A DNA stretch of 51,795 nucleotides from an uncultured Myxococcales bacterium (GTDB lineage: Bacteria > Myxococcota_A > UBA9042). Position 1 is the stretch's first letter. Every line of letters begins with the position of its first letter. The stretch is from contig CAIPXZ010000327.1 in assembly GCA_903869075.1 (NCBI GenBank), forward strand, positions 1 through 51,795, written 5' to 3'. Below are positions 18,813 through 45,827 of this stretch, in pieces. The notes beneath the pieces were generated by a model. The model saw nothing but the letters and a program-made list of their open reading frames with translations, was not told where the DNA came from and ran no database searches. Position numbers and translations under genes: made by a program.

Positions 18813-18815
18813 GGT

Positions 18816-24221: not shown

Positions 24222-25277
24222 TCACGCTGCCGAGGCTGCCGCTACCTGCGCGCCCAGCAAGCTGATATGGCCCTGCGCGTCTTCCATCCACGCTTCCGAC
24301 CCGCGGAACACGCGCATGAGGTCGCCGCCCTTGGGCGCGTAGTGGTCATCGTACGCTGTCTGCTGCACTTTGCGGAACACGCCGACCGGCACCGGCAGGT
24401 CCGGATGTTCCATGTTTGACAGCAGAAAAGCCAGCGACGAGTCTTCGACCGCGACGTCGTGCACGAGCGCGTTGTCCGGCAGCGGGCTGCCCGGCACGTA
24501 CGCCTCGACCTGCGGCCGGAAGCCGTCGATTGTCACGATGCGGTCCTTGCCGTTGCCGAAAATCAGCGGCTCCTTGTCCTTGAGCGTCACCGTCGTGTCC
24601 GCCTTGACGGCTTTCTCGGTCAGGTGGCTGAAGGTGCCGTCGTTGAAGATCACGCAGTTCAGCAGCACTTCCACAAACGCCGCGCCTTTGTGGTCCGCCG
24701 CCTGCTGCAAGATGTCCGCCATCAGCTGGCCGTCGGTATCGGCAACGCGCGCGGCAAAAGTCGCGCCGGCAGCGATCGCCATGGACAGCGGGCGAATCGG
24801 CGGGTCGATCGAGCCGTACGGCGTCGACTTGGTCTTTTTGCCCTTGCTCGTCGTCGGCGACGCCTGGCCTTTGGTCAGGCCGTAGATCTGGTTGTTGAAC
24901 AGAATCACCTTGATGTTGGGATTGCGGCGGATCATGTGGATGAAGTGGTTGCCGCCGATCGACAGCGCGTCGCCGTCACCGGTCATGACCCACACGCTCA
25001 GGTCGGGGCGCGAGAGCTTCAAGCCGGTGGCGACCGTCATGGCGCGGCCGTGGACGGTGTGAAAGCCGTACGTGCCGACGTAGTACGGCGTGCGCGACGA
25101 GCAGCCGATGCCGGAGATGACGGCGAATTTCTCGCGCGGCAGGTTCATGGTCGGGAACGTGCCGGTCAGCCAGCGCAGGACGCTGTAGCAGCCGCAGCCG
25201 GCGCACCACTTCGGGTCGATGGAACTGAGGAAATCCTGGCGCTTGAGGCCGAGGTTGGCGGTAGGGACGATGGTCAT
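24222..25277 (-). CDS. korB: 2-oxoglutarate(2-oxoacid):ferredoxin oxidoreductase beta subunit (TPP-binding)
   Basis: 351 aa, with WCAGCGCYSV and the TPP motif VMTGDGDALSIGGNHFIH..ILFNNQIYGLTKGQ. Confidence 0.88.
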   Translation of the reverse strand: MTIVPTANLGLKRQDFLSSIDPKWCAGCGCYSVLRWLTGTFPTMNLPREKFAVISGIGCSSRTPYYVGTYGFHTVHGRAMTVATGLKLSRPDLSVWVMTGDGDALSIGGNHFIHMIRRNPNIKVILFNNQIYGLTKGQASPTTSKGKKTKSTPYGSIDPPIRPLSMAIAAGATFAARVADTDGQLMADILQQAADHKGAAFVEVLLNCVIFNDGTFSHLTEKAVKADTTVTLKDKEPLIFGNGKDRIVTIDGFRPQVEAYVPGSPLPDNALVHDVAVEDSSLAFLLSNMEHPDLPVPVGVFRKVQQTAYDDHYAPKGGDLMRVFRGSEAWMEDAQGHISLLGAQVAAASAA

Positions 25278-25322
25278 GACGACGCTCCGTAGGTTCCAGG
25301 CAAAAGGCAGGGTTCAGCTGGG

Positions 25323-27167: not shown

Positions 27168-27255
27168 AGGTGTTCCTCCGTCCTGGCCAACCGCCTTTCC
27201 GGGGCGGTCATTCACACGCCGAATGAGGCGCCCGATCGCGTCCAAGGTCAATGCC

Positions 27256-27268
27256 GTCTGTCACAGAC
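27256..27268. promoter_or_regulatory. candidate operator: perfect 6-1-6 palindrome upstream of korA
   Basis: GTCTGT-C-ACAGAC, ~90 nt upstream of the korA ATG. It is followed by two TTGTCA hexamers (27290-27295 and 27301-27306, 11-bp spacing). Confidence 0.25.
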
Positions 27269-27455: not shown

Positions 27456-27980
27456 CTACAGCTTGGGCGTGTCGATCTCGTCCCACGCGCGATCCGGCTC
27501 ATCGTCGCCCGGAACGCGCGCCAGCAATTCGGCAACCAGGCGCTGGTGCTCCAGTTCCTCGGTCCGCAGCTCTACGAACAGCAGGCGGACGTCCTTGTCC
27601 TTGACGTGAATCAAGGCTTCATCAAAAAAATCATAGGCTTTGCGCTCCGCTGCCAGCGCGATTTCCAGCGCCTGGCGCGTGCTCATGAAGTTGCGCGGCT
27701 GGCTCGTCTCCGGCGCCTCGATGTCGATCACCGCGTCCGGATTCACCCGCGACGGCGCGTCGGCGTACAGCGCACGGCGGCGGGTCTGCAGCACTTCGCG
27801 GTGCTTTTGCTCGTTGACGACCATCGCGTCGAAGAACGTCGCGGCGTCGCCCTCATACCGCTTGCCCACGAGCTCGGAGAAATCGGCGTAGCGCTGCCGC
27901 GCCTCTTCCTCAATCAAAATGGCATAATCCAGCGCGTCTTGCAGGGTCAGGTGGGCAAAATCGATGGTCTGAAAGGACAT
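27456..27980 (-). CDS. ferritin-like / rubrerythrin-like diiron four-helix-bundle protein
   Basis: 174 aa from ATG 27980 (AGGAG RBS). Two ExxH pairs (NEQKH, EELEH) plus Glu-bearing helices (LIEEEARQRY, LAAERKAYDFF). Confidence 0.7.
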   Translation of the reverse strand: MSFQTIDFAHLTLQDALDYAILIEEEARQRYADFSELVGKRYEGDAATFFDAMVVNEQKHREVLQTRRRALYADAPSRVNPDAVIDIEAPETSQPRNFMSTRQALEIALAAERKAYDFFDEALIHVKDKDVRLLFVELRTEELEHQRLVAELLARVPGDDEPDRAWDEIDTPKL

Positions 27981-28194
27981 GACGAACTCCTGGTGGTGCA
28001 GCGGCACGGCAGGCCCGGGCAGCGCGGTCGCGAGCGTAACAGACCGCAGCGTTCTGAATCCACGCGCCAGACGCCGCAATTGTCACGGCCTTGTCGTGGC
28101 CGCTGGTGGCGGCTGTGTCACAATCCTGCCACACAGCCCGTGTACGACCCGGACGTTGCGCGGCACAATGGCGGCGCGCAAAGCCGGAGGCCCC

Positions 28195-31100
28195 ATGCAC
28201 AAACCAGCCTACATCACCGTCGACGGCAACGAAGCGACAGCGCTCGTTGCCCACAAGCTCAATGAAATCATTGTCATTTACCCGATCACGCCGTCCTCGA
28301 CGATGGGCGAACTGTGCGACGAGTGGAGCGCCAACGGCCGCCAAAACCTCTGGGGCGCGGTGCCGGAAGTGACGGAAATGCAGTCGGAAGCCGGCGCGGC
28401 GGGCGCGGTCCACGGCGCGCTGCAAGTCGGCGTGCTGGCGACGACGTTCACGGCGTCCCAGGGCCTTTTGCTCATGATTCCAAACATGTACAAAATCGCC
28501 GGCGAGTTGACGCCGTTTTGCATGCACGTTGCCGCGCGCACGCTGGCGACGCACGCGCTGTCGATTTTTGGCGATCACTCGGACGTCATGGCGTGCCGGC
28601 AGACCGGTTTTGCGATGCTGGCTTCCGGCTCGGTACAAGAAGCCCATGATTTCGCAGCGATCGGCCAAGCCGCGACGCTGCGGTCGCGCGTGCCGTTTCT
28701 GCACTTTTTCGACGGTTTCCGCACCTCGCATGAAGTCGCCAAGATCGCCGCGCTGACCGACGCCGACCTGCGCGCGCTCATCGACGCCGACGCCATCGCC
28801 GCGCACCGCGCCCGCGCGCTGACGCCCGATCACCCGAGCGTGCGTGGAACTGCGCAAAATCCAGACGCTTTCTTCCAGGCCCGCGAGGCCGGCAACCGCT
28901 TTACCGACGCCTGCCCGCAGATCGTCCGCGAGTCCATGGCGCACTTCGCGGCGCTGACGGGGCGCGTCTACCAACCGTTTGATTACTTTGGCCATCCAGA
29001 AGCCGAGCGCGTCATCGTCGTCATGGGCTCCGGCGCCGAGACGGTGCGCGAGACGGTGGACTGGCTTGTGGCGCGCGGGCACAAAGTCGGCGTGGTGCAG
29101 GTGCGGCTGTATCGCCCGTTCGCGATTGCCGATTTTGCCAAAGTGCTGCCAGCGACGACCCAGCGCATCGCCGTGCTGGACCGCACCAAGGAGCCCGGCG
29201 CGCCGGGCGAGCCGCTGTACCTGGACGTCGTGGCGGCGCTGGCGGCGCTGCGGCGCGATGGCGAAGGGCTGCTGCACGAGCCGCTCGTTGTCGGCGGGCG
29301 GTACGGCTTGTCGTCCAAGGAATTCACGCCGGCGATGGTCGACGCAATCTTCCGCGAGCTGCAAAAACCCAAGCCGCGCCATGGCTTTACCGTCGGCATC
29401 GTCGATGACGTGACGTTCCTGTCGCTGGCGGTCGACCCAGCGTTCTCGATCGAGGCGGAAGACGTCGTCGGCGCTGTGTTTTTTGGCCTCGGCGCCGATG
29501 GCACCGTCGGCGCCAACAAGAATTCAATCAAGATCATCGGCGAGGAGACCGACAGGTTCGCGCAGGGCTATTTCGTCTATGATTCCAAGAAGTCCGGCGC
29601 GATGACGATCTCGCATTTGCGCTTTGGCCCGCGGCCGATTCGCGCGCCGTACCTGGTCAAGCAGGCGCACTTTGTGGCGTGCCACCACATGACGTTCCTC
29701 GACAAGTATGACGTGCTGGGCTACGCCGCGCCGGGCGGGGTTTTCCTGTTGAATTCCGCGCACAACGCCGCGGAGATCTGGCACCACCTCTCGGCCGAGG
29801 TGCAACAGGAGCTGATCGACAAGCGCCTGACTTTCTACGTGATTGACGCCCACAAGGTCGCCCAGGAGACCGGCATGGGCGCGCGCATCAACACGATCAT
29901 GCAGACGTGCTTTTTCGCCATCTCCGGTGTGCTGCCGCGCGACGAGGCCATCGGCCACATCAAGCATTCCATTGAGAAAAGTTACAAGAAAAAGGGCGCG
30001 GACGTGGTGAAGAAGAACTTTGCCGCCGTCGACCACACGCTCAAGCACCTGGAGACCGTGCACGTGCCGGGGCTGGCGACGTCACCGCGCCACCTGCCGC
30101 CGATTGTCGACAGCCACGCCCCGGATTTTGTGCAGCGCGTGACGGCGGTCATGATGGCGGACAAGGGCGATGCCCTGCCCGTCAGCGCGTTCCCGATCGA
30201 CGGCGTCTGGCCGATGGGCACGACGCAGTGGGAAAAGCGCAATATCGCTCTGGAAATCCCGGTTTGGCACACAAGCGTCTGCATCCAGTGCAACAAATGC
30301 GCGCTTGTGTGCCCGCACGCCGCCATCCGCGCCAAGGTCTTTGACCCCAGCTACGCCGAAGGCGCGCCGCCGACGTTCAAGACCATGGACTACCGCGGCC
30401 TCGAATTCCGCGGCGACAAGTACACGATCCAGGTCGCGCCCGAGGACTGCACCGGTTGTGAGCTGTGCGTACACATGTGCCCCGCGGTAGACAAGCAGAC
30501 CGGTCAGCGGGCGCTGGAGATGGTGCCGCAGCCGGAGCTGCGCGCCGCGGAGCACGCCAACTTTGCGCACTTCCTGGCGATTCCCGAACCGGATCGCTTG
30601 AAAGTGAAGATCGACGTCAAGGGTTCGCAGTTCCTGCAGCCGCTTTTCGAATTCTCGGGCGCGTGCTCCGGCTGCGGCGAGACGCCGTATGTCAAGCTGC
30701 TGACTCAGCTTTTTGGCGACAGGCTGCTGATAGCCAACGCCACTGGCTGCTCGTCCATCTTTGGCGGCAACCTGCCGACGACGCCGTACACGACCAACGC
30801 CGCGGGCCAGGGACCGGCGTGGGCGAACTCGCTTTTCGAGGACAACGCTGAGTTTGGCCTGGGTTTTCGCCTCGCTGTCGACCAGCACGCGCTGCACGCG
30901 CAGGCGCTTGTGCAGGAGCTCATCGGCGTGGCGGACGAGGACCTGGCGCGCGGGCTGCTGACGGCCGACCAGTCGAGCGAGCAGGGCCTCGCGGACCAGC
31001 GGACGCGGGTGGCGACGCTGAAGGAACGGCTGCTGGCGCACCCGACCGGCACAAGCCGACGGCTGTGGCAGATCGCTGATTTCCTTGTGAAAAAGAGCGT

Positions 31101-31746
31101 CTGGATCGTCGGTGGCGACGGCTGGGCGTATGACATCGGCTACGGCGGCTTGGACCACGTGCTGGCCAGCGGACGGGACGTCAACGTGCTCGTGCTGGAC
31201 ACGGAAGTGTACTCGAACACCGGCGGCCAGGCGTCCAAAGCCACGCCGATGGGCGCGGCGGCGCGGTTTGCCACGGCCGGCAAGGCGATGGCCAAGAAGG
31301 ATCTCGGGCTGATGGCGATGAGCTACGGCCACGTCTACGTCGCGCGGGTCGCGCTGGGCGCCAAGGACGCGCACACGGTGCGGGTGATGCAGGAGGCAGA
31401 GTCGTACCACGGCCCGTCGCTTGTGATTGCCTACAGCCACTGCATCGCCCATGGCTATGACCTGAGCGAGGCGCTGGAACACCAGGAAACTGCTGTACAA
31501 TCGGCGTATTGGCCGCTGCACCGCTTTGATCCGCGACGCCAAGCGGCGGGCGAGAACCCGCTGAAGCTGGACTCACCGCCGCCGAAGAAGACGTTGGCGG
31601 AATTCGTCAGCCACGAGAACCGCTTCAAGCAGACTGAAGTCCGTGATCCCAAACACTTTGCCGAGATGATGGACGAGGCGCAGCACGCGCTGAACCGCCG
31701 CTACGCGCTCTACGAGCACCTCAGCAAGCTGGCGGTCAGCGAGTAG
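28195..31746 (+). CDS. nifJ: pyruvate:ferredoxin (flavodoxin) oxidoreductase, single-polypeptide type
   Basis: 1183 aa from ATG 28195 (GGAGG upstream; ATG 28168 also possible). N-terminus MHKPAYITVDGNEATALVAHKL. Two ferredoxin motifs, CIQCNKCALVCPHAAI and CTGCELCVHMCP. TPP site GGDGWAYDIGYGGLDHV..VLVLDTEVYSNTGGQ. Confidence 0.93.
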   Translation: MHKPAYITVDGNEATALVAHKLNEIIVIYPITPSSTMGELCDEWSANGRQNLWGAVPEVTEMQSEAGAAGAVHGALQVGVLATTFTASQGLLLMIPNMYKIAGELTPFCMHVAARTLATHALSIFGDHSDVMACRQTGFAMLASGSVQEAHDFAAIGQAATLRSRVPFLHFFDGFRTSHEVAKIAALTDADLRALIDADAIAAHRARALTPDHPSVRGTAQNPDAFFQAREAGNRFTDACPQIVRESMAHFAALTGRVYQPFDYFGHPEAERVIVVMGSGAETVRETVDWLVARGHKVGVVQVRLYRPFAIADFAKVLPATTQRIAVLDRTKEPGAPGEPLYLDVVAALAALRRDGEGLLHEPLVVGGRYGLSSKEFTPAMVDAIFRELQKPKPRHGFTVGIVDDVTFLSLAVDPAFSIEAEDVVGAVFFGLGADGTVGANKNSIKIIGEETDRFAQGYFVYDSKKSGAMTISHLRFGPRPIRAPYLVKQAHFVACHHMTFLDKYDVLGYAAPGGVFLLNSAHNAAEIWHHLSAEVQQELIDKRLTFYVIDAHKVAQETGMGARINTIMQTCFFAISGVLPRDEAIGHIKHSIEKSYKKKGADVVKKNFAAVDHTLKHLETVHVPGLATSPRHLPPIVDSHAPDFVQRVTAVMMADKGDALPVSAFPIDGVWPMGTTQWEKRNIALEIPVWHTSVCIQCNKCALVCPHAAIRAKVFDPSYAEGAPPTFKTMDYRGLEFRGDKYTIQVAPEDCTGCELCVHMCPAVDKQTGQRALEMVPQPELRAAEHANFAHFLAIPEPDRLKVKIDVKGSQFLQPLFEFSGACSGCGETPYVKLLTQLFGDRLLIANATGCSSIFGGNLPTTPYTTNAAGQGPAWANSLFEDNAEFGLGFRLAVDQHALHAQALVQELIGVADEDLARGLLTADQSSEQGLADQRTRVATLKERLLAHPTGTSRRLWQIADFLVKKSVWIVGGDGWAYDIGYGGLDHVLASGRDVNVLVLDTEVYSNTGGQASKATPMGAAARFATAGKAMAKKDLGLMAMSYGHVYVARVALGAKDAHTVRVMQEAESYHGPSLVIAYSHCIAHGYDLSEALEHQETAVQSAYWPLHRFDPRRQAAGENPLKLDSPPPKKTLAEFVSHENRFKQTEVRDPKHFAEMMDEAQHALNRRYALYEHLSKLAVSE

Positions 31747-31754: not shown

Positions 31755-34424
31755 CTAGTTCGGCACGGCGAGGCACTGACCCGCGGTCTGGCACGTGTAC
31801 TGGACCGGCGAGGCGCTGCCGCTGTTGCAGCTCTCGCCGTTGCTCAGGATGATCCACCCGTACTGGCTGGGGAATTTGCCGGCGCAGACGCGGCAGGAGT
31901 CGTTGCCAGCGATGCCGGCGTAGGCGCCATCGGCGATGCACTTGCCGTCGATGAGGCACGTCGCGGCGGCGAGGTTGTGCTGGCACACGCCGCTGCTGCA
32001 GACGTCGGTCGTGCAGCTGATGCCGTCGCTGCAGTCGCCGTCGGTTGTGCAGTCCGGCACGTGCTGGACGGTGACCTGTACGACGATCTCACAGGAATTG
32101 TTCGGCTCGCCGGCGACGGGTGGCAGGTCGTAGAGCGTCGCCGTCGCCGTGCCGGTGCCCTTGCCGGCGCCGTAGGTGATGATGCTTGTCTCGACGGACG
32201 TCACGCCGTAGTTGGCATCGACGCTGACCGAGCAGCTGGCTTCCACGTTGCTGACGATGCTGCCGATCTGCGTCGCGGTGCCGCCGGGCGCGTAGTCGCA
32301 GCCGCCGATGAAGTTCATCGGGTGCGGCTTGCCGGTCTTGGTGTAGCCGACGTTGGCGCGCGGTTCCACAAGCTGGATGATGGCGTTGCAGGTCGTGGAC
32401 ACGGTCTTTGTCGTCACCGTCCAGTTGCCGCCGGTGTAGAACGCCGGCTTGGTGCTGGCGTCACACGTCGGCAGCGCGCAGACCTTGCCGTTGGCGAGCG
32501 GCGCGGTCGGCGGCCACGGGTCCACGCAGGTGCCGCTGGCGCAGGTGCCGGCGGTGCCGCAGGAGAACGTCTCGTTGGCGACGCTCCAGCTGTTGCTGCT
32601 GGCGGTGGCGCTGCAGGCGAGGCAGGCGTTGCTCGGGTTGCCCTGGCCGTCGCTGTAGCAGGTGCCGTCGACAAGGCAGTTGCCGGCGGTGACGGTGTGC
32701 GTGCAGGCGTGCGTCGTCGGGTCGCACACGTCGCCGGTGCAGGCTTTGCCGTCGTCGCACTGGCCGTTGTTCAGGCACTGCGGCACGGTGCCAGCGCAGA
32801 CGCCGGCGGTGCAGGTGTCGCCAATCGTGTTGGCGTTGCCGTCATCGCAGCTCGTCGCCGAGAGCTTGGTGTTGACGCAACCGGCCGTCGGGTCGCAGGA
32901 ATCCGCGGTGCAGGCGTTGCCGTCATCGCACTTGCTGCCGGAAATGTCGCTGTGGCTGCACGCCAAGATCGCGGAGTTGCCGGCCGCGGGATCGCAGCTG
33001 TCGTTGGTGCAAACGTTGTTGTCGCTGCACGGCGTGCCGGCGGCGCCGGTGCAGGTCGTGACGTCGCAGGCGTCGGCGACGGTGCAGAAGTTGCCGTCAT
33101 CGCAGGCGATGGCGCCAGCAGCGGTGTGGAGGCAGCCCTTCTTGCTGTCGCAGGCGTCCACGGTGCAGGCGTTGCCGTCGTCGCAGCCGCCGTTGTTCGC
33201 CGTGCCGCTGCAGGCGCCGCCAGCGCAGGCGTCGGCGGTCGTGCAGGTCACGCCGTCGTCGCAGCTGACGGCGTTGTTGGTCGTGGTGCAGGCGCCGGAC
33301 AGGTCGCAGCCGTCGTCGGTGCACGCGTTGCCGTCGTCGCAGACTTTGGCGCTGCCGGTGCAGGTGCCGGTGCCGCAGTTGTCGCCCACGGTGCAGGCGT
33401 TGCCGTCGTCGCACGTCACGCTGGCGGGCAGCGCGACCGTCACGCAACCCTTCGTCTTGTCGCAGGAATCGGTGGTGCAGGCGTTGCCGTCGTCGCAGAC
33501 GATGGCGGTGTTGCTGCAGAACATGTTGGTGCATGTGTCGGTTGTGCACGCGCTTTTGTCATCGCAATCGGCATCGGCGGCACAATCGGGCGCGCTGAAG
33601 CCGCTGCAGGCGCTGAGCGCTTTGCCGCATTTTTGCGCGGAGCAGGAAATGCACGCCGGGTCGGTCACGGTGGCGCTGATGAAGTTCGAGCATTCCGACA
33701 CGCAAGACGTCGACACACAGACCGACAAGTCGCCGAAGCAATCCGCGCATTGGGACGCCATCGGGTAGGTTTGGGCGATGCAAGTGGCCATGCACGCTTT
33801 GTCCAAGGTGTTGGTGATCGGCGCGCCCGCCGGCTTGCAGGCACCGGTGCCGCACGTGCCCAGCGCGGTGACAAAAGCGATGTTCGTCGTCGAATCCCAC
33901 TCCCCTTTGCTGCAGTTGGTCGCGGACCCGGTGTCACCAGCGGTGTCGCCGCTCGCGTCGCCGCCGGCGTCCGTGGCGGTCACGTCGGATGTGTCGTCGA
34001 CGGTGTCCGTGCACGTGCCGTTGCCGGCGCAGATGCCCTTTTTGCAGTAGTCGTTCTGGGTGCACGGGTCGCCGTCGTCGCAGGGACCGGCGTTCTGCGG
34101 GTTGCTGCACACGCCCTTGGCGCAGATGTTGTCGGTACACGGGTCGTTGTCGTTGCACTCGGAGTTCGTCGTACACTGCGGCGCGACGTCGGGCGGCACA
34201 TCGTCAGACACCTCGGCCACGTCAGTCTTGGACGCTGTGTCCTGGGTATCCTTGCCAACATCGGCTGCGGCGTCCGAGGCCGTCACGCTGTCGTCCACGC
34301 CCACATCGGCGGCGACGTCGTCACCCGGCTGCGTCGCTGGGTTCGTGCCACCGCACGCTGCGAGCGCCAACACAGCGGCCACGAGCATCAAGCGTTTGTC
34401 CAGCAAATTCAAGGCAATCTTCAT
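31755..34424 (-). CDS. Cys-rich repeat lipoprotein A (slime-mold-type CDDGNxCTxDxC repeats)
   Basis: 889 aa from ATG 34424. Lipobox in MKIALNLLDKRLMLVAAVLALAA|CGG, then an acidic D/V/A tether. I hand-count at least 14 copies of C-[DS]-D-x-x-x-C-T-x(1,2)-D-x-C (main array ~32679-33584). A ~150-aa non-repeat module lies near the C-terminus. Confidence 0.85.
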   Translation of the reverse strand: MKIALNLLDKRLMLVAAVLALAACGGTNPATQPGDDVAADVGVDDSVTASDAAADVGKDTQDTASKTDVAEVSDDVPPDVAPQCTTNSECNDNDPCTDNICAKGVCSNPQNAGPCDDGDPCTQNDYCKKGICAGNGTCTDTVDDTSDVTATDAGGDASGDTAGDTGSATNCSKGEWDSTTNIAFVTALGTCGTGACKPAGAPITNTLDKACMATCIAQTYPMASQCADCFGDLSVCVSTSCVSECSNFISATVTDPACISCSAQKCGKALSACSGFSAPDCAADADCDDKSACTTDTCTNMFCSNTAIVCDDGNACTTDSCDKTKGCVTVALPASVTCDDGNACTVGDNCGTGTCTGSAKVCDDGNACTDDGCDLSGACTTTNNAVSCDDGVTCTTADACAGGACSGTANNGGCDDGNACTVDACDSKKGCLHTAAGAIACDDGNFCTVADACDVTTCTGAAGTPCSDNNVCTNDSCDPAAGNSAILACSHSDISGSKCDDGNACTADSCDPTAGCVNTKLSATSCDDGNANTIGDTCTAGVCAGTVPQCLNNGQCDDGKACTGDVCDPTTHACTHTVTAGNCLVDGTCYSDGQGNPSNACLACSATASSNSWSVANETFSCGTAGTCASGTCVDPWPPTAPLANGKVCALPTCDASTKPAFYTGGNWTVTTKTVSTTCNAIIQLVEPRANVGYTKTGKPHPMNFIGGCDYAPGGTATQIGSIVSNVEASCSVSVDANYGVTSVETSIITYGAGKGTGTATATLYDLPPVAGEPNNSCEIVVQVTVQHVPDCTTDGDCSDGISCTTDVCSSGVCQHNLAAATCLIDGKCIADGAYAGIAGNDSCRVCAGKFPSQYGWIILSNGESCNSGSASPVQYTCQTAGQCLAVPN

Positions 34425-34501
34425 CACAAACTCCGTTCCAGGGGCCCAATCGAGTCTCGTAAGGCGCGGCAATCCCACGCAAAGCCGACGCAGCGCGCGG
34501 G

Positions 34502-34530
34502 ATCATACGAGCGCAAACGGGGATGCGCAA
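34502..34530 (-). promoter_or_regulatory. candidate sigma70-type promoter (and dyad) for lipoprotein A
   Basis: Minus strand reads TTGCGC (34530-34525), a 17-nt spacer, then TATGAT (34507-34502), ~75 nt upstream of ATG 34424. The dyad GCGCA-N8-TGCGC (34511-34528) overlaps the -35 element. Confidence 0.35.
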
Positions 34531-34553
34531 CAACTTGGCGGAAACGCCGCTGG

Positions 34554-35465
34554 CTACGGCAGGTCGTCCGCCGGGACAAAGCCGACGGTGCCTTCGATCA
34601 GCTCGCGGATCAGCGCCACCGCCGCGCGCGTCCGCGGCGTCCCCGCCCGCACTTCCGGGATCGCCAGCCGCACCGCGCAGGACCGCCCGACGAGCGTGTT
34701 GAGCACGGGCACCAGCCCGTCCGACTCCACGCTCACCTGCACCGGCGGGTTCGGCAGCAGCCCGATGCCCACGCCCGCCGCCACAAGCATCCGCAACAGG
34801 TGAATGTCCGAGCCGACGACCGCCGGCTTGACCGGCACCAGCCCGCCGGCGCGCATCGGCAGCGAACGCCCGTCCTCGCCCGGCGCGCGCCAAACCAGCA
34901 GCGGATGCGCCTCCAGCTCAGCCAGCGTCCGCGGCGTGCCGTGCTCCGCCAGGTACTCCGGCGACGCGAGCAGCTGCTCGTCCAGCGTCATCAGCAGCTG
35001 CGTGCGGAACGGCCCACGCGGCACCGACGGGCCGAAATGCAGCACCAGATCGACGTCCGCCGGCAGCTGCGCCAGCGGATCCTCGGCGAAGCTCAGGTGC
35101 ACCGGCACCTGCGGATGGCGCTCGCGGAACAAGCCCATCAGCATCCCCAGGAGCTCCGGCGGCGGTCCAACCGGCACGCGCAGGTGCAGCTCGCCCGACG
35201 GCACGTTCATCTCGTCGCGCACCGAGCTCGGCAGCGCCCGCAGCTGGTTCACAAGCGCCCGCGCCCGCTCCGCCAGCGCCGTGCCCGCCGCCGTCGCTTC
35301 GGCGCCATCGCGCGTCCGCGTCAGCAACGCCACGCCGAATTCCTGCTCCAGCGCGTCCAACTTGGCGCGCACTGTCGAGCGCGGCAGCTTCAGCGCGTCC
35401 GCCGCACCGAGCACAGAGCCGTGATCCACGATGGCCAAGAAGGCCTGTAGCTGGTCAATATCCAT
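34554..35465 (-). CDS. LysR-family transcriptional regulator
   Basis: 303 aa from ATG 35465. HTH start MDIDQLQAFLAIVDHGSVLGAADALKLPRSTVRAKLDALEQEFGVALLTR, then a periplasmic-binding-fold-like effector domain. The track ORF's upstream 155 aa are Arg-rich junk. Confidence 0.9.
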   Translation of the reverse strand: MDIDQLQAFLAIVDHGSVLGAADALKLPRSTVRAKLDALEQEFGVALLTRTRDGAEATAAGTALAERARALVNQLRALPSSVRDEMNVPSGELHLRVPVGPPPELLGMLMGLFRERHPQVPVHLSFAEDPLAQLPADVDLVLHFGPSVPRGPFRTQLLMTLDEQLLASPEYLAEHGTPRTLAELEAHPLLVWRAPGEDGRSLPMRAGGLVPVKPAVVGSDIHLLRMLVAAGVGIGLLPNPPVQVSVESDGLVPVLNTLVGRSCAVRLAIPEVRAGTPRTRAAVALIRELIEGTVGFVPADDLP

Positions 35466-35587
35466 GGGTTCCCGCAGCGCGGCCCGATACGCGCTGTGGG
35501 ACTTCGCGTACCGCCGCGCGCGCGCGAAGTCAAGCCAGGCCTGCCAACGCCGCGCTTGTCCAAGCAAGATCGGGTGCATGGTCGGAC

Positions 35588-38500
35588 CTACTGGCACACG
35601 CCGGCGCTGCAGGTCTTCGCCGCGCCGCAAGCGACGCCATCGGGCAGCGCGGTGTGGCTGCACAAGCCGGCGTTCGTGGCGAGGCAGACGTCCGCGGTGC
35701 ACGGGTTGGCGTCGTCGCACAGCGCCTCGGTCTGGCCGCCGCAGCTGCCGCTGTCGGCGCAGGTGACGTTGCCCCAGGTGTCGAGCTTGACGATCCAGCC
35801 GTCGCCCCAGCCTTTTTGGTCGTCGATGCCAGCAAGGACAAAGCCGTCGGTGGCGGTGGCGACCGCGGCGAGGCTGCACGTGCCTGTTGCGTTCGTGGTG
35901 TCCGCCGGCCTGGGGATGGCTTTTTGCCACAGCAGGTTGCCGTTCAGGTCCGTGCGGACGACGTAGCCTTCGCGGGCGGGCGCGCCAAAGCCGTCCGTCG
36001 CGCCGGCGAGGATCAGGCCGTCGCCGGTGGCGGTGATGCCGCTGCCGAAGTCATCCGCGGTCGAGCCGTAGGTCTTTTGCCACAAGACGTTGCCATTGGC
36101 GTCGAGGGCGACAAGCCAGACCTTGCTTGTCGCGGTCGGACTGGCGACGTAGCTGCCCACGACGTACAAAGTACCTGCAACTTCAACGATCTTGCCGAAG
36201 CTTGTGCCGAGGCTTGTCGTGGAGTTGAGATCGCCGGCGATGCGCTTGTCCCACAGTTTGGCGCCGCTTGCGTCGGTGCGCACGACCCAGCCGCCGTTGT
36301 CCGCGCGTCCGGCCATGACGATGTCGCCGTTGGCGGCGACGATAACGCCAGCACAGCTCTGGTAGTAGCTCGCCGGATCATAAAAATTGTGTGATTTAGC
36401 GTTGTTGCCGCTCGTGTCCGTCGTGAGGAGCCAGAAGTTTTCATCGCCGCCCAGCAAGGACGAAGACGTGCCGCCGCAAGCCACGTAGCCGCCGGGCCGC
36501 GTTGCGATGGCGTGCAACTCGTCCTGGCCGGTGCCACCGTAGGTCTTCTTCCACAGCATTGTCAGGCCGTCGGCGGCGACCGCGTAGAGGACGCCATCGT
36601 CGTGCGTCTGGTCGACGCCTGTGTTGCCGGCGAAGGTCCAGCCGCTGCCCGCCGCGACGACGTCGTGCAACTCGTCAAAGCCGCCGAGGTCGACGACGTT
36701 GCCCGCGTCGCCGTTCGCGTCGCTATTGAGAATGGTGCCGCCCAAGTCCGTGACAACCATCCACAAGTTGTCGGTGCCATGCGCCCGGCCGGCGAACGCG
36801 TAGCCGGTGGCGCTGACCGCGATGCCGCTCAAGCCGGCGTAGTAGTCAAAGCCCAGCGCGTGGCTGAAGGTCGATTTGTGGCCCGCGGCGCACGCGCCAG
36901 CCTTGCAGCTGTCCTGGAGCGTGCACGGGCTGCCGTCCTCGCACCTCAGGCCGTCGCTGACCGCCGTCGATTTGCAGCCGCCGTTGGCGTCGCAGACATC
37001 GAGCGTGCAGAGGTTGACGTCGTCGCAGTAGGCGCCAGAGGCGAAATTGACATGGCTGCACACGCCGGCGCTGCAGGCGTCATTGGTGCACAGGTTGCCG
37101 TCGCCGCAGTCGCTGGGACTCTTGCCCGCGCAGTCGCCCGACGCGGCGCACGTGCTGTTGCCAAAGCTGTCAAGGCGCACGAGGTAGCCCTGTCGGCCGT
37201 CGCTGCCGTCCTGCGCGCCACCGATCCACACACCTTGCGGCGTGGAAGCAACGGACTGGCCGAGCGCGAACAGGTCACCGGCCTTCGGATCCTTTTCCCA
37301 GAGCGTGTTGCCAGCCGTGTCCAGCCGCACCGCAAAGAGCCCGGACGGGGCGATTTGGTTGTAGCCCGAGACCAACATACCGTCGCTCAAGGTCAAGGCC
37401 CCAATTCCCTTCTTGGCGTTGTTCAGGCCGCCGACCTCGCGCATCCACAGTGGCGCGCCGTCGACTCCCAAGCGGTGCATGAACAGGGCGAAAGCGATGT
37501 CCGTGTTGGAGAAAGCGTTGACGACGACGTTGAAGCTGCCGTCGGGCAGCGCCGCGACGCCCATCAGCGTGCTGCTTGCGGACTTGCCGTCGTCGAACAG
37601 CTGGCCCCACAGCTTGTTGCCGTAGCTGTCGACGCCGATGGCGTAGCCCGCGGTGCCGCAACAGCCCGTGGGCACGTTGCCGCCGAGAATCCAGCCGCCG
37701 CTGGTGATCGGTGCGAGGCTTGTGATCTCCAAGTTGGCGGGAGAATTGTACGTATAGGTGTTCTTGAGGGTGCCGTCGCTGTGGAGCCGGGTCAGCGTGT
37801 TTCCGCCCACCGTGGCGTAACCCTCGCCGTCGACGATGATCGCGTTCTCGCCCGAGGCAACGTTGGTGCTCTGGACCAGGCCGCCATCCGCGACGGCGAG
37901 CGCAAGAAACCACGAAGCGCCGCTCTTGCTGGCCTGATGGCCGATGAACGCGACCGTGCCGACGTCGCGCACGCCGGCGTTGAGAATGTCGTCGCCCGGC
38001 GTGGCAAAGGTCTGGCTCCACAACGTGTTGCCGAGGGTGTCCAGCCGGCTGACCGTGGTGTCGATGCCAGCGCTGCCGCCGTTCATGCTCTGCACCGCCA
38101 TGATAACCCCGCCATCGTCCAGCCCCACGACGGCGGAGACCAAGTGCTCGACGGTGGCGCCGTACGTCTTGCTCCACAGCGTCGCGCTGCCCGTGCACAC
38201 GCCCGCGCTGCACGCGTCATTGACGGTGCAGACCGTGCCGTCGCTGCACGCGCTGCCGTCGCTCTTCGTCGGGTTGCTGCAGCTGCCGCTCGTGGTGTCG
38301 CAGGTGCCGGCGGCGTGGCACGTGTCGCTGGCGGTGCAGGTCTTGGCGGTCCCGGCGACGCACGCGCCGGACTGGCACGTGTCGGCCACCGTGCACGCAT
38401 TGCCGTCGCTGCAGGTCGCGCCGTTGGTCTTCCCCGGGTTGCTGCACGTGCCGCTCGTCGTGTCGCAGCTGCCGACGGCGTGGCACTGGTCGCTGGCGGT

Positions 38501-39841
38501 GCACACCACCGGATTGGCGCCGACGCACGCGCCGTTCTGGCAGGTGTCGCTCTGCGTGCACGCGTTGCCGTCGCTGCAGCTGTTCACGTTGTTGGTGTGG
38601 GTGCAGCCGCCGGCGGCGCAGCCGTCCGTCGTGCAGGGGTTTTTGTCGTCGCAGTCGAGCGGCGCGGCGCCTGGCATGCACGTGCCGCCCGCGCACTGGT
38701 CGCCCACCGTACACGGGTTGCCGTCGTCGCAGGCGAGCGTGTTGGCGGTGTGACTGCAGCCGGAATTCGCATCGCAGCTGTCGGTCGTGCACAGCTGGCC
38801 GTCGTCGCAGGTGACGCTCACGCCCTTGCACGTCCCGCTCGCGCACACGTCGGCCGAAGTGCAGGCGTCGCCATCGTCGCAACTGGCCGTGTTGACGCTG
38901 TGCAGGCAGCCTTGCAGCGCGTTGCAGCTGTCGGTGGTGCACGCGTTCTGGTCGTCGCAGTCCTGCACGGTCGGCGTCGCGCTGCAACTGCCGGCGAGGC
39001 AAGTGCTCGCGTCCTGCCAGCCGCCCGCGCCGCAGCTCTTGGCGCTGCATGCGGTACCGTCGGTCTGGGCAACGTGGCTGCAGCCGGATTGCGGCGTGCA
39101 GCCGTCGGTGGTGCACGGGTTGCCGTCGTCACAGGAAACCGTGCCGAGCGCCACGCACCCGCCTTCCTGGCAGCTCGCGGCGCTGACGCACTTGTCAGCC
39201 AATGTGCAGGTGCCGCTGGCGGCTGTGTGGAGGCAGCCGCTGGCGGTGTCGCAGCTGTCCGCACTGCAGCTGTTGCCGTCGTCGCAGCCGGTCACGGCGC
39301 CAGGCATGCAGACGCTGGCCGCGCAACTGTCGCCCAGCGTGCAGGCGTTGCCGTCTGAACAGGTGGCCGCGTTGGCCAAGTGGACGCACGCGCCGGCGTC
39401 GCCACAGCTGTCGTCGGTGCACGGGTTCTGGTCGTCGCACTGCGCCGCGGTGCAGCTCGGACCCGTGTCGCCGGTGGTGTCGCCGTCGGCATCCGCGTCC
39501 ACCGCGTCGGGGGCAGCATCGGGTTGCCCCGCGTCGGCGTCAGCGGTGTCCGCGACGACATCGCTGCCGGTGTCGCTGTCCACGCTGTCCGCGACGACAT
39601 CGCTGCCGGTGTCGGTGTCCACGCCGTCCGCCGCGACATCGCTGCCGGTGTCGGCATCCACGCCGTCCGCCGCGACATCGCTGCCAATGTCGGTGTCCAG
39701 CGGCGCAACGTCAGGCCCGCCATCGGCCGGCACCGCGCTATCGGCGACGATGTCCTGCTGGTCCAGGAAGGACTCGGCCGACGGCACGGTCTCCACGCAA
39801 CCGACGACGAGCACACTCAAAAATCCAAGCCAATACCGCAT
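35588..39841 (-). CDS. giant lipoprotein B: acidic tandem-repeat tether + Cys-rich repeat arrays alternating with two beta-propeller-like modules
   Basis: 1417 aa from ATG 39841. Lipobox in MRYWLGFLSVLVVG|CVE. I hand-count at least 16 CDDGNxCTxDxC-type units, in arrays at ~38186-39454, 36884-37153 and 35591-35764. Two modules (~37154-38185 and ~35765-36883) carry a recurring (V/L)xR(L/T)DxxGNxLW blade-like motif, about 5 copies each. Confidence 0.88.
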   Translation of the reverse strand: MRYWLGFLSVLVVGCVETVPSAESFLDQQDIVADSAVPADGGPDVAPLDTDIGSDVAADGVDADTGSDVAADGVDTDTGSDVVADSVDSDTGSDVVADTADADAGQPDAAPDAVDADADGDTTGDTGPSCTAAQCDDQNPCTDDSCGDAGACVHLANAATCSDGNACTLGDSCAASVCMPGAVTGCDDGNSCSADSCDTASGCLHTAASGTCTLADKCVSAASCQEGGCVALGTVSCDDGNPCTTDGCTPQSGCSHVAQTDGTACSAKSCGAGGWQDASTCLAGSCSATPTVQDCDDQNACTTDSCNALQGCLHSVNTASCDDGDACTSADVCASGTCKGVSVTCDDGQLCTTDSCDANSGCSHTANTLACDDGNPCTVGDQCAGGTCMPGAAPLDCDDKNPCTTDGCAAGGCTHTNNVNSCSDGNACTQSDTCQNGACVGANPVVCTASDQCHAVGSCDTTSGTCSNPGKTNGATCSDGNACTVADTCQSGACVAGTAKTCTASDTCHAAGTCDTTSGSCSNPTKSDGSACSDGTVCTVNDACSAGVCTGSATLWSKTYGATVEHLVSAVVGLDDGGVIMAVQSMNGGSAGIDTTVSRLDTLGNTLWSQTFATPGDDILNAGVRDVGTVAFIGHQASKSGASWFLALAVADGGLVQSTNVASGENAIIVDGEGYATVGGNTLTRLHSDGTLKNTYTYNSPANLEITSLAPITSGGWILGGNVPTGCCGTAGYAIGVDSYGNKLWGQLFDDGKSASSTLMGVAALPDGSFNVVVNAFSNTDIAFALFMHRLGVDGAPLWMREVGGLNNAKKGIGALTLSDGMLVSGYNQIAPSGLFAVRLDTAGNTLWEKDPKAGDLFALGQSVASTPQGVWIGGAQDGSDGRQGYLVRLDSFGNSTCAASGDCAGKSPSDCGDGNLCTNDACSAGVCSHVNFASGAYCDDVNLCTLDVCDANGGCKSTAVSDGLRCEDGSPCTLQDSCKAGACAAGHKSTFSHALGFDYYAGLSGIAVSATGYAFAGRAHGTDNLWMVVTDLGGTILNSDANGDAGNVVDLGGFDELHDVVAAGSGWTFAGNTGVDQTHDDGVLYAVAADGLTMLWKKTYGGTGQDELHAIATRPGGYVACGGTSSSLLGGDENFWLLTTDTSGNNAKSHNFYDPASYYQSCAGVIVAANGDIVMAGRADNGGWVVRTDASGAKLWDKRIAGDLNSTTSLGTSFGKIVEVAGTLYVVGSYVASPTATSKVWLVALDANGNVLWQKTYGSTADDFGSGITATGDGLILAGATDGFGAPAREGYVVRTDLNGNLLWQKAIPRPADTTNATGTCSLAAVATATDGFVLAGIDDQKGWGDGWIVKLDTWGNVTCADSGSCGGQTEALCDDANPCTADVCLATNAGLCSHTALPDGVACGAAKTCSAGVCQ
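39530..39703 (-). repeat. 4 x 39-bp in-frame tandem repeat (13-aa acidic unit GSDV(A/V)ADGVDxDT)
   Basis: Units at 39548-39586, 39587-39625, 39626-39664 and 39665-39703 on the + strand (gtccgcGacgacatcgctgccggtgtcgCtgtccacgcT and variants), with a decaying fifth copy down to ~39530. Confidence 0.9.
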
Positions 39842-39861
39842 GTTGCCGCCTCGCGTCAGAG

Positions 39862-40794
39862 TTAGAATCGTCCCGCCCACTGCACACCGTTCAGCGTCGG
39901 CGTCGGCACCCAGGCGCTTTGCTGCAGCGCATCCGTCAGCCACAGCGCCCCGCCACCGAGCGCCGCCGCCGCACCGAGCGCCAACGTCACGGCACCGGCT
40001 GTCTTTTTGTGACCAATCGCCGCCGCCTGCGCCGTGGCGTCAGCGTAGGAAATCCCACTGATATAGCTACCTTGCGTCTGCGCCAGCTTGCCATCGAGCG
40101 CCGAGCGGTCGGATGCCGCGCTGCCATACACCGCCGCGCCGGCGATCACCGCCACCGCGCCCGCGCCCAGCAGGCCCCAGCGCGCGTACGTGCGCCAGCG
40201 CGGCGCCGGATCCGCTGGCGGCGCCGTCGCGACAACCACCGGCGCCGCGACCGGCTTCACCACCACTGGCGCCGCCACGGGCGTCACAACCACCGGCGGC
40301 GGCTTGACCGGCGTAGGCGGCGCGACCGGCTCCGGCGGCGGCGCAGGCTTGACCGGCTCCGGCGCGGGCTTCGCCACCGGCAGCGGCGCCGGCTCGGGCT
40401 TCACCTCCGGCTTGGTCGGCAGCGTTCGCTCCAGCGCCGCCATCGTCGTCTGCAGCTCGCGCAGCGCGTTGCGGCCTTTCTTGGACCACGGGTCGGTCGC
40501 CGGCAGCAACGCCAGCAGGCTCTCGTAAGCCAGCATAGCATCTTGGTATTTTTGGGCATTTTGCAGCGACCGCCCGAGGCCAAACAGGTACTCCGGCCGC
40601 GTCGGGTCGATGCGGAACGCCCGGCGGTACAGCTCCGCGGCCATCGTGAACTCACCCGCTTTGTAGTAGTCCATCGCCTGCTTGGCCACGCCCGCTGCTT
40701 CGACGACAGTGGCGTTCCCGGCAAACGCCGGCGTCGGCGCCACCGCCAAGCTTGCCAGCAGCAGCAGCGCCCAGCGCACGCCGCGCGCACACAT
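39862..40794 (-). CDS. secreted TPR-like / Pro-rich linker / C-terminal hydrophobic-domain protein
   Basis: 310 aa from ATG 40794. Signal peptide MCARGVRWALLLLASLAVAPTPAFA. TPR-like AKQAMDYYKAGEFTMAAELYRRAFRIDPTRPEYLFGLGRSLQNAQKYQDAMLAYESLL. Pro-rich KPEVKPEPAPLPVAKPAPEPVKPAPPPEPVAPPTPVKPPP. A Gly/Ala-rich C-terminal part ends in ..GVQWAGRF. Its stop lies 20 nt upstream of the lipoprotein B start. Confidence 0.8.
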   Translation of the reverse strand: MCARGVRWALLLLASLAVAPTPAFAGNATVVEAAGVAKQAMDYYKAGEFTMAAELYRRAFRIDPTRPEYLFGLGRSLQNAQKYQDAMLAYESLLALLPATDPWSKKGRNALRELQTTMAALERTLPTKPEVKPEPAPLPVAKPAPEPVKPAPPPEPVAPPTPVKPPPVVVTPVAAPVVVKPVAAPVVVATAPPADPAPRWRTYARWGLLGAGAVAVIAGAAVYGSAASDRSALDGKLAQTQGSYISGISYADATAQAAAIGHKKTAGAVTLALGAAAALGGGALWLTDALQQSAWVPTPTLNGVQWAGRF

Positions 40795-40936
40795 ACCGCG
40801 ACCTGCGGCCCGCGCCGCATATCCACATGAAATCATGGAGCCTCCCGCCTCGAAAACAGGTGCGATGCCCGCGCACGCAGTCCTGTTCAGGTTCCTGTGC
40901 CGTCAGCGTACCGTGTCGCCGCGGCCGCGCCATGGC

Positions 40937-40959
40937 GAAAATCCGCCAGTCGATGGCGG
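40937..40959 (-). terminator. candidate intrinsic terminator after the GMC oxidoreductase gene
   Basis: Minus strand reads CCGCCA-tcgac-TGGCGG followed by ATTTTC, ~55 nt downstream of the stop at 41012. Confidence 0.4.
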
Positions 40960-41011
40960 CAAAGGCCGCGGTCGGGAGAAACACTTGCGGCGGCGTGGGG
41001 ATTTCGCTCGG

Positions 41012-44261: not shown

Positions 44262-45707
44262 CTATTTGCACGGCCCCAGCAGGTCGCTCAGGGTCTTTTG
44301 CCGCTTGGTGATGTAGGTCTGCAGCGCCAGGTATGCCGTGTCCAGCTGCTTGGGCGTGTACAAGCCCTTGGGATCACTGTAGACATACGGCTTGAGCGCC
44401 ATCTGCCAGGACTGCACGAGGGGCAGCAAAGTCGCGCTGTTGAAGAGCCCGCACTGCAGCGCCTGCAGCTTGGCCACCAGCTTGGGCTTGAGCACCGCGT
44501 TGTTCCAAATCCGCTTGTACAGCGTGTCCGTGCGGTCCGCGCACCAGCTGTTCGGCGGCCCCCACGGCGTCGCGAGCTCGTACCACGCGTCGTTGAAGTT
44601 GCCGAACGTCAGGTCGACGCCCGTCGGGATCATATGGAATTTTTTGGTCTTTTCGTCGCCGTAGATCGTGAAATTCTGCCCCGCTGACGCGAGGCCATCG
44701 AGGTTCGACAGCAGCGCGTCGACGGCGTAGTCCGCCAGCAGCTCATCGGTGTAGAAATACTTGTCGAGCACCGCCGGCAGCTGGTCATCAGTGGCGGTCG
44801 TGATGGCCTGCGCCGCGTCGACGATCGCCTGCGGGTCGCCCGGACTGCCGACGTACGCCGGCTTGAGCGCCGGACAGCCACCCGCCGTCGGGCAGTCGAT
44901 GCCCATGCAGCCGATGACCGGCTCGAACTTGTCGCCGTTCTTGTTGCCAAACGCGTTGGAAAAAAAGCGTTTATCCACGCTCTCTTGCAGCTCGTACGCG
45001 CCGTAGTCTTCGCCATTGACGGTGAAGTGCGCCCAGCTGAAGCGCGGGCCGTTGCCGCCGATCGTCCGCACGAGCGCGCCGGCGATGGGCTCGCGGATGA
45101 AGGTCGGGTCCTGGCCGGACGCCTTCAAGCGGAACTCTTTCTCGCCCAGCGGGCCATAGCCGGTGGTGACGAACTGGTCGAATTTGAAGCGCATATTCGG
45201 CTTGCCTGGGTTGTCGATCTGGCTGCCGTTGCCAAAGCCCTTGACGCCGGCGGCGCTGAACTTCTGGCCGTCAAACTCCACGTCCGCCTGGTCCCAGGTG
45301 TAGACCTTCATACCGTCGGGCTGGTTGACGCCGTTCAGGTACGCCGTCCAGTCCGCTGCGGCGAGCGTGACCTTGACCTCGTGGATGCCCTCGAAGTCGA
45401 ACATGCCGGTCGCTGGCGTTATCGCCGTGATTTCAGAGGGTAAGCCGCCGCCGATGTCGGCGATGATGTCGTACTGCACAACGTCCGGCTTGACCGTATC
45501 CGGCGCGTCGGCGCTGTCGACGTCCGCGGCATCGCTGCCATCCGCGGTGTCCAACACCGTCGCATCCTTGCCGGACGGCTGCCAATCGACCGTCGAGACG
45601 TCATCGGTGCTCGCGTCCGGGTCCGCACCGGCACCCGCGGGGTCGCTGCCGCACGCGCTCAACAGCCCCAGCCACGCCGCCATCATCCACAAGGTCGCTT
45701 GCCGCAT
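44262..45707 (-). CDS. CotH-family (atypical kinase fold) lipoprotein
   Basis: 481 aa from ATG 45707 (GGAGGA RBS). Lipobox in MRQATLWMMAAWLGLLSA|CGS, then an acidic tether. CotH-like core FRLKASGQDPTFIREPIAGALVRTIGGNGPRFSWAHFTVNGEDYGAYELQESVDKRFF. The remaining 722 aa of the track ORF are antisense shadow. Confidence 0.75.
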   Translation of the reverse strand: MRQATLWMMAAWLGLLSACGSDPAGAGADPDASTDDVSTVDWQPSGKDATVLDTADGSDAADVDSADAPDTVKPDVVQYDIIADIGGGLPSEITAITPATGMFDFEGIHEVKVTLAAADWTAYLNGVNQPDGMKVYTWDQADVEFDGQKFSAAGVKGFGNGSQIDNPGKPNMRFKFDQFVTTGYGPLGEKEFRLKASGQDPTFIREPIAGALVRTIGGNGPRFSWAHFTVNGEDYGAYELQESVDKRFFSNAFGNKNGDKFEPVIGCMGIDCPTAGGCPALKPAYVGSPGDPQAIVDAAQAITTATDDQLPAVLDKYFYTDELLADYAVDALLSNLDGLASAGQNFTIYGDEKTKKFHMIPTGVDLTFGNFNDAWYELATPWGPPNSWCADRTDTLYKRIWNNAVLKPKLVAKLQALQCGLFNSATLLPLVQSWQMALKPYVYSDPKGLYTPKQLDTAYLALQTYITKRQKTLSDLLGPCK

Positions 45708-45745
45708 GAGTCCTCCGTTGCGCACTTCGCGCACGATAACCGATT

Positions 45746-45779
45746 GCCACTGCGCGGGCCACTGCGCGAACACTGGCGC
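45746..45779. promoter_or_regulatory. tandem direct repeats in the cotH / glycosidase-like divergent promoter
   Basis: GCCACTGCGCG (45746-45756) and GCCACTGCGCG (45758-45768) at 12-bp period, plus a degenerate third copy ACACTGGCGC (45770-45779). The whole intergenic region is only 120 bp. Confidence 0.35.
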
Positions 45780-45827
45780 CCGCCGCGCTCTTGCCGTATC
45801 TTGCGCCAACCCGCGGAGGGCGGGCGT

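Follow-up and report, generated by a model that had tools for sequence, protein, structure and literature searches.

We analyzed four co-oriented genes on the minus strand of a 51,795-nucleotide (nt) stretch of DNA (the window) from an uncultured Myxococcales bacterium of a lake-water metagenome. They encode, in the order of reading, a protein with tetratricopeptide repeats (TPR; P4), a large predicted lipoprotein (P3), a LysR-type regulator and a second predicted lipoprotein (P1). P1 and P3 carry tandem arrays of a four-cysteine repeat, and both belong to the Dicty_CTDC family (PF00526). With moderate confidence, we read P1 and P3 as lipid-anchored stalk-and-head proteins, P4-P3-LysR as one lineage-specific transcription unit, and P1 as a separate gene. 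The window has a G+C content of 64-71%. An open reading frame (ORF) map filtered by G+C at third codon positions, together with the translations, confirmed the four minus-strand ORFs that a sequence-only reading of this DNA had reported (Table 1).

At the level of the repeat, that reading had proposed the motif C-[DSE]-D-x-x-x-C-[TS]-x(1,2)-D-x-C, with at least 14 copies in P1 and at least 16 in P3. Taken as literally written, the motif has 12 occurrences in P1 and 15 in P3, against about zero in 2000 shuffles of each protein. The higher counts were reached when one-residue departures were admitted (N for D/S/E, or N for the second Cys). When the whole window was translated in six frames, the motif was confined to P1 and P3. 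The repeat units are 23-28 residues long and hold four cysteines with the spacing C-x5-C-x4/5-C-x3-6-C (14 units in P1 and 16 in P3). Two subtypes alternate, CDDGNACTxDSCDxxxGCxHT and CDDGNxCTxxDxCxxGxC. Cysteine makes up 10.7% of P1 and 6.6% of P3 (94 residues).

For family membership, both whole proteins scored far above the PF00526 gathering cut-off of 27 bits, and the family that the sequence-only reading had named was thus the correct one. On their own, 4 of the 14 repeats of P1 and 8 of the 16 repeats of P3 pass the same model. The proposal that this is not the GDGC-type repeat of Myxococcus also held: P1 and P3 did not match DUF4215/PF13948 in Pfam (E<=0.01), and their cysteine spacing differs. 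No repeat model from NCBIfam –the home of TIGR02232 and TIGR04201– matched either protein at E<=10, the presence of TIGR04201 in the release being unverified.

Both proteins begin with a signal peptide and a lipobox by inspection (MKIALNLLDKRLMLVAAVLALAAC for P1 and MRYWLGFLSVLVVGC for P3), the lipobox being taken as a signal peptide ending in [LVI][ASTVI][GAS]C. An Asp-rich tether follows the lipobox in P1, and P3, with the same isoelectric point (pI) of 4.05, has a D-rich acidic tether at about residues 25-130. Neither C-terminus shows a hydrophobic or Arg-rich MYXO-CTERM tail. The description of P1 and P3 as disulfide-rich secreted lipoproteins seems a fair reading of these features. Most likely, they would be anchored in the outer membrane or at the surface, with the array acting as a stalk for binding heads.

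P3 has a modular layout: the tether is followed by 12 repeats, a region of about 350 residues, three repeats, a second region of about 375 residues and a final repeat. Blade motifs of the form ..D..GN.LW.K.. recur periodically in both non-repeat regions, which resemble each other, and one protein (P0313) matches both. Region 2 retrieved 276 homologues, many of them with PF17164 or named 'delta-60 repeat protein', and often with tails of the type IX secretion system (T9SS); because of these tails, the propeller homologues are typically secreted. Against the Protein Data Bank (PDB), region 2 matched the propeller of CylK (E 1.3e-6), a weak match (29 bits) on the generic blade motif only. P3 also matched the NCBIfam model for SBBP lipoproteins (E 4.7e-6), at 25.5 bits and far under its cut-off of 400.

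P1 is arranged as two repeats, a unique Cys-rich stretch, 11 repeats and a C-terminal region of about 300 residues. The Cys-rich stretch was unmatched both in Pfam (E<=10) and among 157 related repeat-array representatives. The C-terminal region (residues 581-889, 31758-32684) holds a duplicated element, CL[VI]DG.C..DG...C..C...W, at about residues 583 and 822, and belongs to no Pfam family at E<=10. It has four homologues among 5.8 billion proteins. Three of the four are proteins of 359-385 residues with lipobox-like N-termini of their own and 50-53% identity, and the two homologues whose contigs were examined lie in unrelated gene contexts.

P1 and P3 had also been proposed to be paralogous. 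By BLASTP, they are alike only within the repeat arrays (34-44% identity), and their remaining domains are unrelated, which weakens the proposal.

The locus was covered 7-9x by independent contigs of the source run, except inside the P1 array. At about 32772-33470, the independent contigs break and the depth climbs to 25-54x via cross-matching repeats; the repeat order of P1 is therefore known from the assembly of the window only. In contigs of four lake-water runs, the arrays at 32772-33470 and 38500-39200 showed a depth 3-6x that of their flanks and many cross-joints, and the same community or genome therefore holds many near-identical Dicty_CTDC stretches.

The third protein, P4, combines a signal peptide (..AFA|G), two or three TPR units (residues ~50-113), a Pro-rich linker (residues ~140-210) and two hydrophobic C-terminal helices (residues ~220-240 and 280-301). 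It is basic (pI 9.7), and its TPR_2 match scored 38.7 bits against a cut-off of 27. Its stop codon lies 20 nt ahead of the P3 ATG. The next gap, between P3 and LysR, is 122 or 8 nt depending on the LysR start, and LysR and P1 are 129 nt apart. The coding strand holds no terminator-like site between P4, P3 and LysR. Together with the synteny described below, which persists despite changed flanks, the short gaps and the lack of such a site indicate that P4-P3-LysR is probably one operon.

We searched for relatives of the locus with the LysR protein. The genome scan retrieved one close relative, a Myxococcales metagenome-assembled genome (L002) with a LysR 86% identical to ours, while the other matches were generic LysR regulators of about 30% identity. 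The metagenome scan with LysR retrieved no close relative. In L002, P4 (60% identical and in the equivalent position), P3 and LysR are in synteny, and downstream of LysR convergent radical-SAM and carbamoyltransferase genes stand in place of P1. The L002 orthologue of P3 (4011-9878; lipobox LLSAC) has about 1950 residues and three repeat-plus-propeller units rather than two, and the modules have therefore been duplicated, gained or lost as whole units. Upstream of P4, L002 carries another Dicty_CTDC protein (L002:3-1448). The end of that protein resembles the fibrinogen C-terminal domain (E 1e-7) and the fibrillar-collagen C-terminal domain COLFI (8e-5), an animal-matrix-type domain.

Three short contigs also present P3 followed by LysR. 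In two of them (L163 and L164), LysR is 91% identical to ours. In the third (L162), P3 is 53% and LysR 65% identical, and a MYXO-CTERM metalloprotease-like gene comes after LysR. The L162 regulator (1949-2790) has lost about 215 nt encoding the helix-turn-helix (HTH), its frame is broken, and the gene call covers just the substrate-binding part; either the regulator is decaying or the loss is an artefact of how the Logan contig was assembled.

P1 was absent beside LysR in every relative found, and it is a neighbour of LysR only in this genome. A motif scan of 161 fetched loci found the repeat in L002 only, and beside none of the 159 other LysR loci. From the synteny in L002, L163/L164 and L162, the conserved unit is P4-P3-LysR, or at least P3-LysR, of one narrow lineage. 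The sequence-only reading had described a LysR-centred locus of four genes. Its linkage was recovered for P4-P3-LysR (in L002) and in no relative for P1, which L002 replaces by other genes, and LysR is likely the 3' end of a P4-P3-LysR operon, not a centre.

Regarding the regulator itself, HTH_1 (PF00126) scored 57 bits and LysR_substrate (PF03466) 87 bits. The best NCBIfam match was YafC, far under its cut-off, and no equivalog cut-off was reached. An exact look-up of the window LysR with its two start codons found no identical record. LysR regulators usually respond to small metabolites.

An upstream ATG at 35579, 8 nt past the P3 stop, would give LysR an N-terminal extension of 38 codons. 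L002, L163 and L162 share this start codon and the frame RRW.AWLDF.RA, and the stretch from the P3 stop to the certain LysR start (35466-35587) is conserved in three lineages, with the DNA core TGGCTTGACTTC. Substitutions in the 38 codons were 10/6/10 by codon position, with no clear third-position bias. The stretch may either extend LysR at its N-terminus or act as a regulatory site. Ahead of LysR, TGGCAGGCCTGGCTTGA was considered as a sigma-54 promoter and rejected by inspection for the wrong spacing of its GG/GC elements.

Upstream of P4, the region 40837..41011 is a candidate promoter or leader of the P4-P3-LysR unit. The hairpin GTGCGCGGGCATCGCAC lies directly before the P4 ribosome-binding site and was also flagged by the promoter/terminator scan. 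The promoter scan found no sigma-70 consensus upstream of P4, and a sigma-54 promoter in TGGCGGATTTTCGCC was discarded by inspection, again for wrong GG/GC element spacing. By eye, a repeated CGCCAT pair about 21 nt apart is seen at roughly 40930-40960, both in the window and in L002.

P1 may have its own promoter, since the spacer between LysR and P1 holds by eye TTGCGC-17 nt-TATGAT and a GGAG site; the consensus promoter scan did not list this candidate. The upstream regions of P4, LysR and P1 contained no perfect T-N11-A dyad and no common 9-mer, and no operator-like sequence was common to those of P4 and P1.

Table 1. Features of the four-gene locus (positions in the window; aa, amino acids)
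Feature	Position	Strand	Description
P4 5' region	40837..41011	-	About 60 nt at the start codon kept in L002; hairpin GTGCGCGGGCATCGCAC; GGGAGG ribosome-binding site
P4	39862..40836	-	324-aa secreted TPR protein; Pfam TPR_2/TPR_14/TPR_1; hydropathy, composition
P3	35588..39841	-	1417-aa lipoprotein; lipobox VVGC, Cys15; PF00526 85.6 bits; orthologues in L002, L163/L164 and L162
P3 repeat array 1 (aa 135-555)	38177..39439	-	12 Dicty_CTDC-type four-Cys repeats; two Cys-rich inserts; two degenerate CTASD.C units
P3 beta-propeller-like region 1 (aa ~556-905)	37127..38176	-	Repeated ..D..GN.LW.. blade motifs; weak DUF5122 match (E 0.58)
P3 spacer (aa 912-990)	36872..37108	-	Three Dicty_CTDC repeats between the propeller-like regions
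P3 beta-propeller-like region 2 (aa ~991-1365)	35747..36871	-	delta-60 / DUF5122 / SBBP kind
P3 C-terminal Dicty_CTDC repeat and Cys-rich tail (aa 1375-1417)	35591..35719	-	Motif counts
LysR-type regulator	34554..35579	-	Certain core 34554-35465 (303 aa, ATG); HTH_1 and LysR_substrate
LysR-P1 spacer	34425..34553	-	129 nt; by eye TTGCGC-17 nt-TATGAT and GGAG ribosome-binding site
P1	31755..34424	-	889-aa lipoprotein; lipobox LAAC, Cys24; pI 4.05; 95 Cys; PF00526 86.1 bits
P1 first two repeats (aa 90-140)	34005-34157	-	Motif counts, Pfam
P1 unique Cys-rich region (aa ~170-285)	33570..33917	-	No family match
P1 main Dicty_CTDC array (aa 287-580)	32685..33566	-	11 repeats; repeat order subject to assembly caveat
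P1 rare C-terminal globular region (aa ~581-797)	32034..32684	-	Preceded by CL[VI]DG.C..DG...C..C element
P1 last Dicty_CTDC repeat, second CLIDG.C..DG...C..C element and tail (aa 798-889)	31758..32033	-	Kept in four homologues

The repeat class itself proved very common. We searched 1.84 billion cluster representatives (clusters at 50% identity) by phmmer with a five-repeat tile of P3 and retrieved 14,274 clusters at E<=1e-3, of which 3,165 at E<=1e-30. Many of these proteins have 2000-5400 residues and up to 46 matched stretches. Those that we scanned scored 157-307 bits on PF00526, with the array joined to Lcl_C or SdrD_B-like domains, and the named examples include proteins of Magasanikbacteria and Thermoanaerobaculia and MYXO-CTERM proteins. 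A lipobox-like N-terminus was present in 85 of 157 related repeat-array proteins, and six of the 157 match the propeller regions of P3. P1 and P3 had been presented as giant; given these numbers and the varied partner domains, they are modest members of a large, unstudied bacterial class. In the literature searched, the sole mention of bacterial Dicty_CTDC was its use to label a domain in a bacterial teneurin preprint, and we found no functional study of bacterial PF00526 proteins.

Among the known systems, the Dictyostelium proteins EcmA/EcmB, PsiA and DicA1/PsiF share with P1 and P3 the four-cysteine PF00526 repeat of about 24 residues, in long tandem arrays of secreted, disulfide-rich proteins, and EcmA/EcmB and PsiA act in the matrix and in signalling (PMC4931340). 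Unlike P1 and P3, they are eukaryotic, are not lipoproteins and often carry PA14, and their function is not transferable. P1 and P3, for their part, have a lipobox, are strongly acidic, and join their arrays to beta-propellers or to a rare bacterial domain.

The closest experimentally studied analogue for how P1 and P3 may work is TraA of Myxococcus xanthus, a myxobacterial envelope protein with a PA14-like variable domain, TIGR04201 Cys-rich repeats and MYXO-CTERM. The likeness of myxobacterial Cys-rich repeats to Pfam00526 was already remarked in the TraA paper (PMC3325183), and the tandem repeats of TraA, of about 20 residues, have been proposed as a stalk for the recognition domain (PMC3325183, PMC6372800). 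P1 and P3 differ from it in their repeat family, in the N-terminal lipobox instead of MYXO-CTERM, in the propellers or unclassified domain instead of PA14, and in lacking a TraB-like partner. The TIGR02232/DUF4215 repeat is likewise a Cys-rich tandem repeat abundant in secreted proteins of Myxococcota, but it gave no hidden Markov model (HMM) match here and has another cysteine spacing.

The P3 blade motif is shared by propellers of the delta-60/DUF5122 (PF17164)/SBBP kind, by the Leptospira LipL53 family –some of these being also lipoproteins– and by CylK. The propeller-like regions of P3 score under every curated cut-off for them, and most of the relatives have T9SS tails and no Dicty_CTDC arrays. 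Other bacterial Dicty_CTDC proteins (the N-terminal regions of teneurin-like proteins, and thousands of unnamed ones) use the same repeat in a modular way, often with a lipobox, and none has been studied. We found no instance outside this lineage of the P3 layout with P4 and LysR as neighbours, or of the P1 array fused to its rare C-terminal domain.

Taking these features together, P1 and P3 would be Sec-exported, lipid-anchored, acidic envelope proteins of an uncultured lake-water Myxococcota. Each repeat of about 25 residues would presumably hold two disulfides made by the periplasmic Dsb system, and the tandem repeats would together make a long stalk, stiffened by these bonds, that follows a flexible Asp-rich tether. 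This stalk would hold the non-repeat globular domains off the membrane: two predicted beta-propellers in P3, and the rare, putatively beta-rich C-terminal domain in P1. These heads probably bind a ligand, a surface or a polymer. The stalk reading agrees with the pairing of such arrays elsewhere with Lcl_C, SdrD_B-like and fibrinogen/COLFI-like domains and with propellers.

P4 would be a TPR protein held in the inner membrane by its two helices, and it may aid the export or assembly of P3. LysR may be a feedback regulator that sets the level of the P4-P3-LysR unit in answer to a small molecule. P1 would be a separate gene of the same protein class, placed beside LysR in this genome only.

A number of points weigh against this reading. 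The rod shape of the arrays and the disulfide pairing are assumed. AlphaFold 2 (AF2), run on a five-repeat tile with a pseudo-alignment of P1 and P3 tiles, gave a predicted local distance difference test (pLDDT) score of 46.8, and 47.1 when given the C-terminal region of P1 and its four homologues; both models were too poor for a fold search. Sequence and profile searches of the PDB with the repeat found zero solved relatives. Pfam makes no propeller call on the non-repeat regions of P3 when searched to E<=10, the DUF5122 match being the best. Whether P1 and P3 face the surface or the periplasm is not readable from the sequence. For the operon, the promoter/terminator scan gave nothing beyond what shuffled sequences gave, and just three related lineages supply the synteny, perhaps having diverged too little for rearrangement. 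Moreover, since the L162 LysR lost its HTH while P3 is intact, LysR is not indispensable for P3.

The genes around the locus are metabolic and unrelated to it. A convergent pyruvate:ferredoxin oxidoreductase (PFOR) ends 8 nt from the P1 stop, and a GMC oxidoreductase and a WS/DGAT-like gene lie upstream of P4. The anti-phage defence HMMs of PADLOC had zero matches for P1, P3, LysR and P4.

Elsewhere in the window, two pyruvate/2-oxoacid:ferredoxin oxidoreductase gene sets (24222-27260 on the minus strand and 27979-31746 on the plus strand) flank a rubrerythrin gene (27456-28082), which gives this lake-water Myxococcota genome an anaerobe-type toolkit. Two more large predicted lipoproteins without a Pfam match are encoded at 4670-7705 and 45444-48041 (lipoboxes LMAC and LSAC). 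At 496-4686, we observed a hybrid histidine kinase of 1396 aa, in which DUF4118 and multiple PAS domains are joined by a receiver domain. An HD-GYP-like response regulator (12316-13587) is encoded near it, as are three antiporter-type subunits of the Mrp/Nuo kind (13833-18815).

Three other explanations were weighed for the locus, and one for the repeat. The genes could lack any functional link and be neighbours by descent only, with LysR regulating something elsewhere. The arrangement is indeed common to close relatives only, the other LysR loci lack the motif, neither a TPR nor a LysR gene adjoins other propeller-plus-repeat proteins –one such protein, in locus L165, adjoins a DUF4215 protein instead– and LysR is degraded in L162. 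Against this, P3 and LysR still adjoin each other at a protein identity of 53-65% where the flanks on both sides have changed, very short junctions separate the genes, and the leader upstream of P4 is conserved. We regard the absence of a link as unlikely.

P3 could alternatively be a periplasm-facing enzyme or substrate-capturing protein, with propellers that are catalytic or cofactor-binding as in CylK, repeats that only stabilise, and a LysR that senses the substrate or product. The only solved propeller relative is in fact the catalytic propeller of CylK, and the metabolite responses usual for LysR regulators would fit, as would the metabolic neighbours (GMC oxidoreductase, WS/DGAT-like gene and PFOR). 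This explanation seems improbable, because the CylK match is weak and generic, no catalytic family was matched in Pfam or NCBIfam, T9SS cargo and 'cadherin'-type surface proteins make up most of the closest propeller homologues, and the metabolic neighbours are not kept in L002.

A bolder version of the stalk-and-head reading takes Dicty_CTDC arrays as primarily a bacterial invention, a disulfide-stapled stalk module that envelope lipoproteins of Myxococcota and other phyla widely use and that the dictyostelid EcmA/B and Psi factors acquired horizontally. P3-type proteins would then be the living bacterial counterparts, and P4-P3-LysR a self-regulated surface-binding device. We hold this to be quite improbable; the class is large in prokaryote-dominated collections, which says nothing on the direction of transfer or on relatedness.

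Finally, the idea of a four-gene, LysR-controlled matrix, adhesion or prey-contact module of a social bacterium, with paralogous proteins and convergence or exchange with social amoebae, starts from true PF00526 membership, four co-oriented genes with short gaps, the matrix and signalling roles in Dictyostelium (PMC4931340) and the remarked likeness of myxobacterial repeats (PMC3325183), but it is very improbable, as P1 is missing from the locus of every relative found, P1 and P3 share repeats only, P4 and P1 have no operator-like sequence in common, LysR is truncated in L162, the class is widespread in bacteria, non-social lineages included (such as Magasanikbacteria and Thermoanaerobaculia), and this lake-water organism gives no sign of a social lifestyle. 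Both the LysR-centred framing and the social-amoeba link are not supported by the comparative evidence.

The best-supported reading of P1 and P3 remains that of stalk-and-head proteins. The locus itself adds little, with no conserved four-gene module and an uncultured organism. If the reading is true, P1 and P3 would exemplify a class of bacterial envelope proteins that is very large and has hardly been studied, with more than 14,000 clusters at 50% identity and some members of more than 5,000 residues. Their repeat is the one known from the extracellular matrix of slime moulds; both fields would gain from a structure and a disulfide map of the bacterial form, and with a proper phylogeny it could be decided whether the repeat of the amoebal matrix arose in bacteria.

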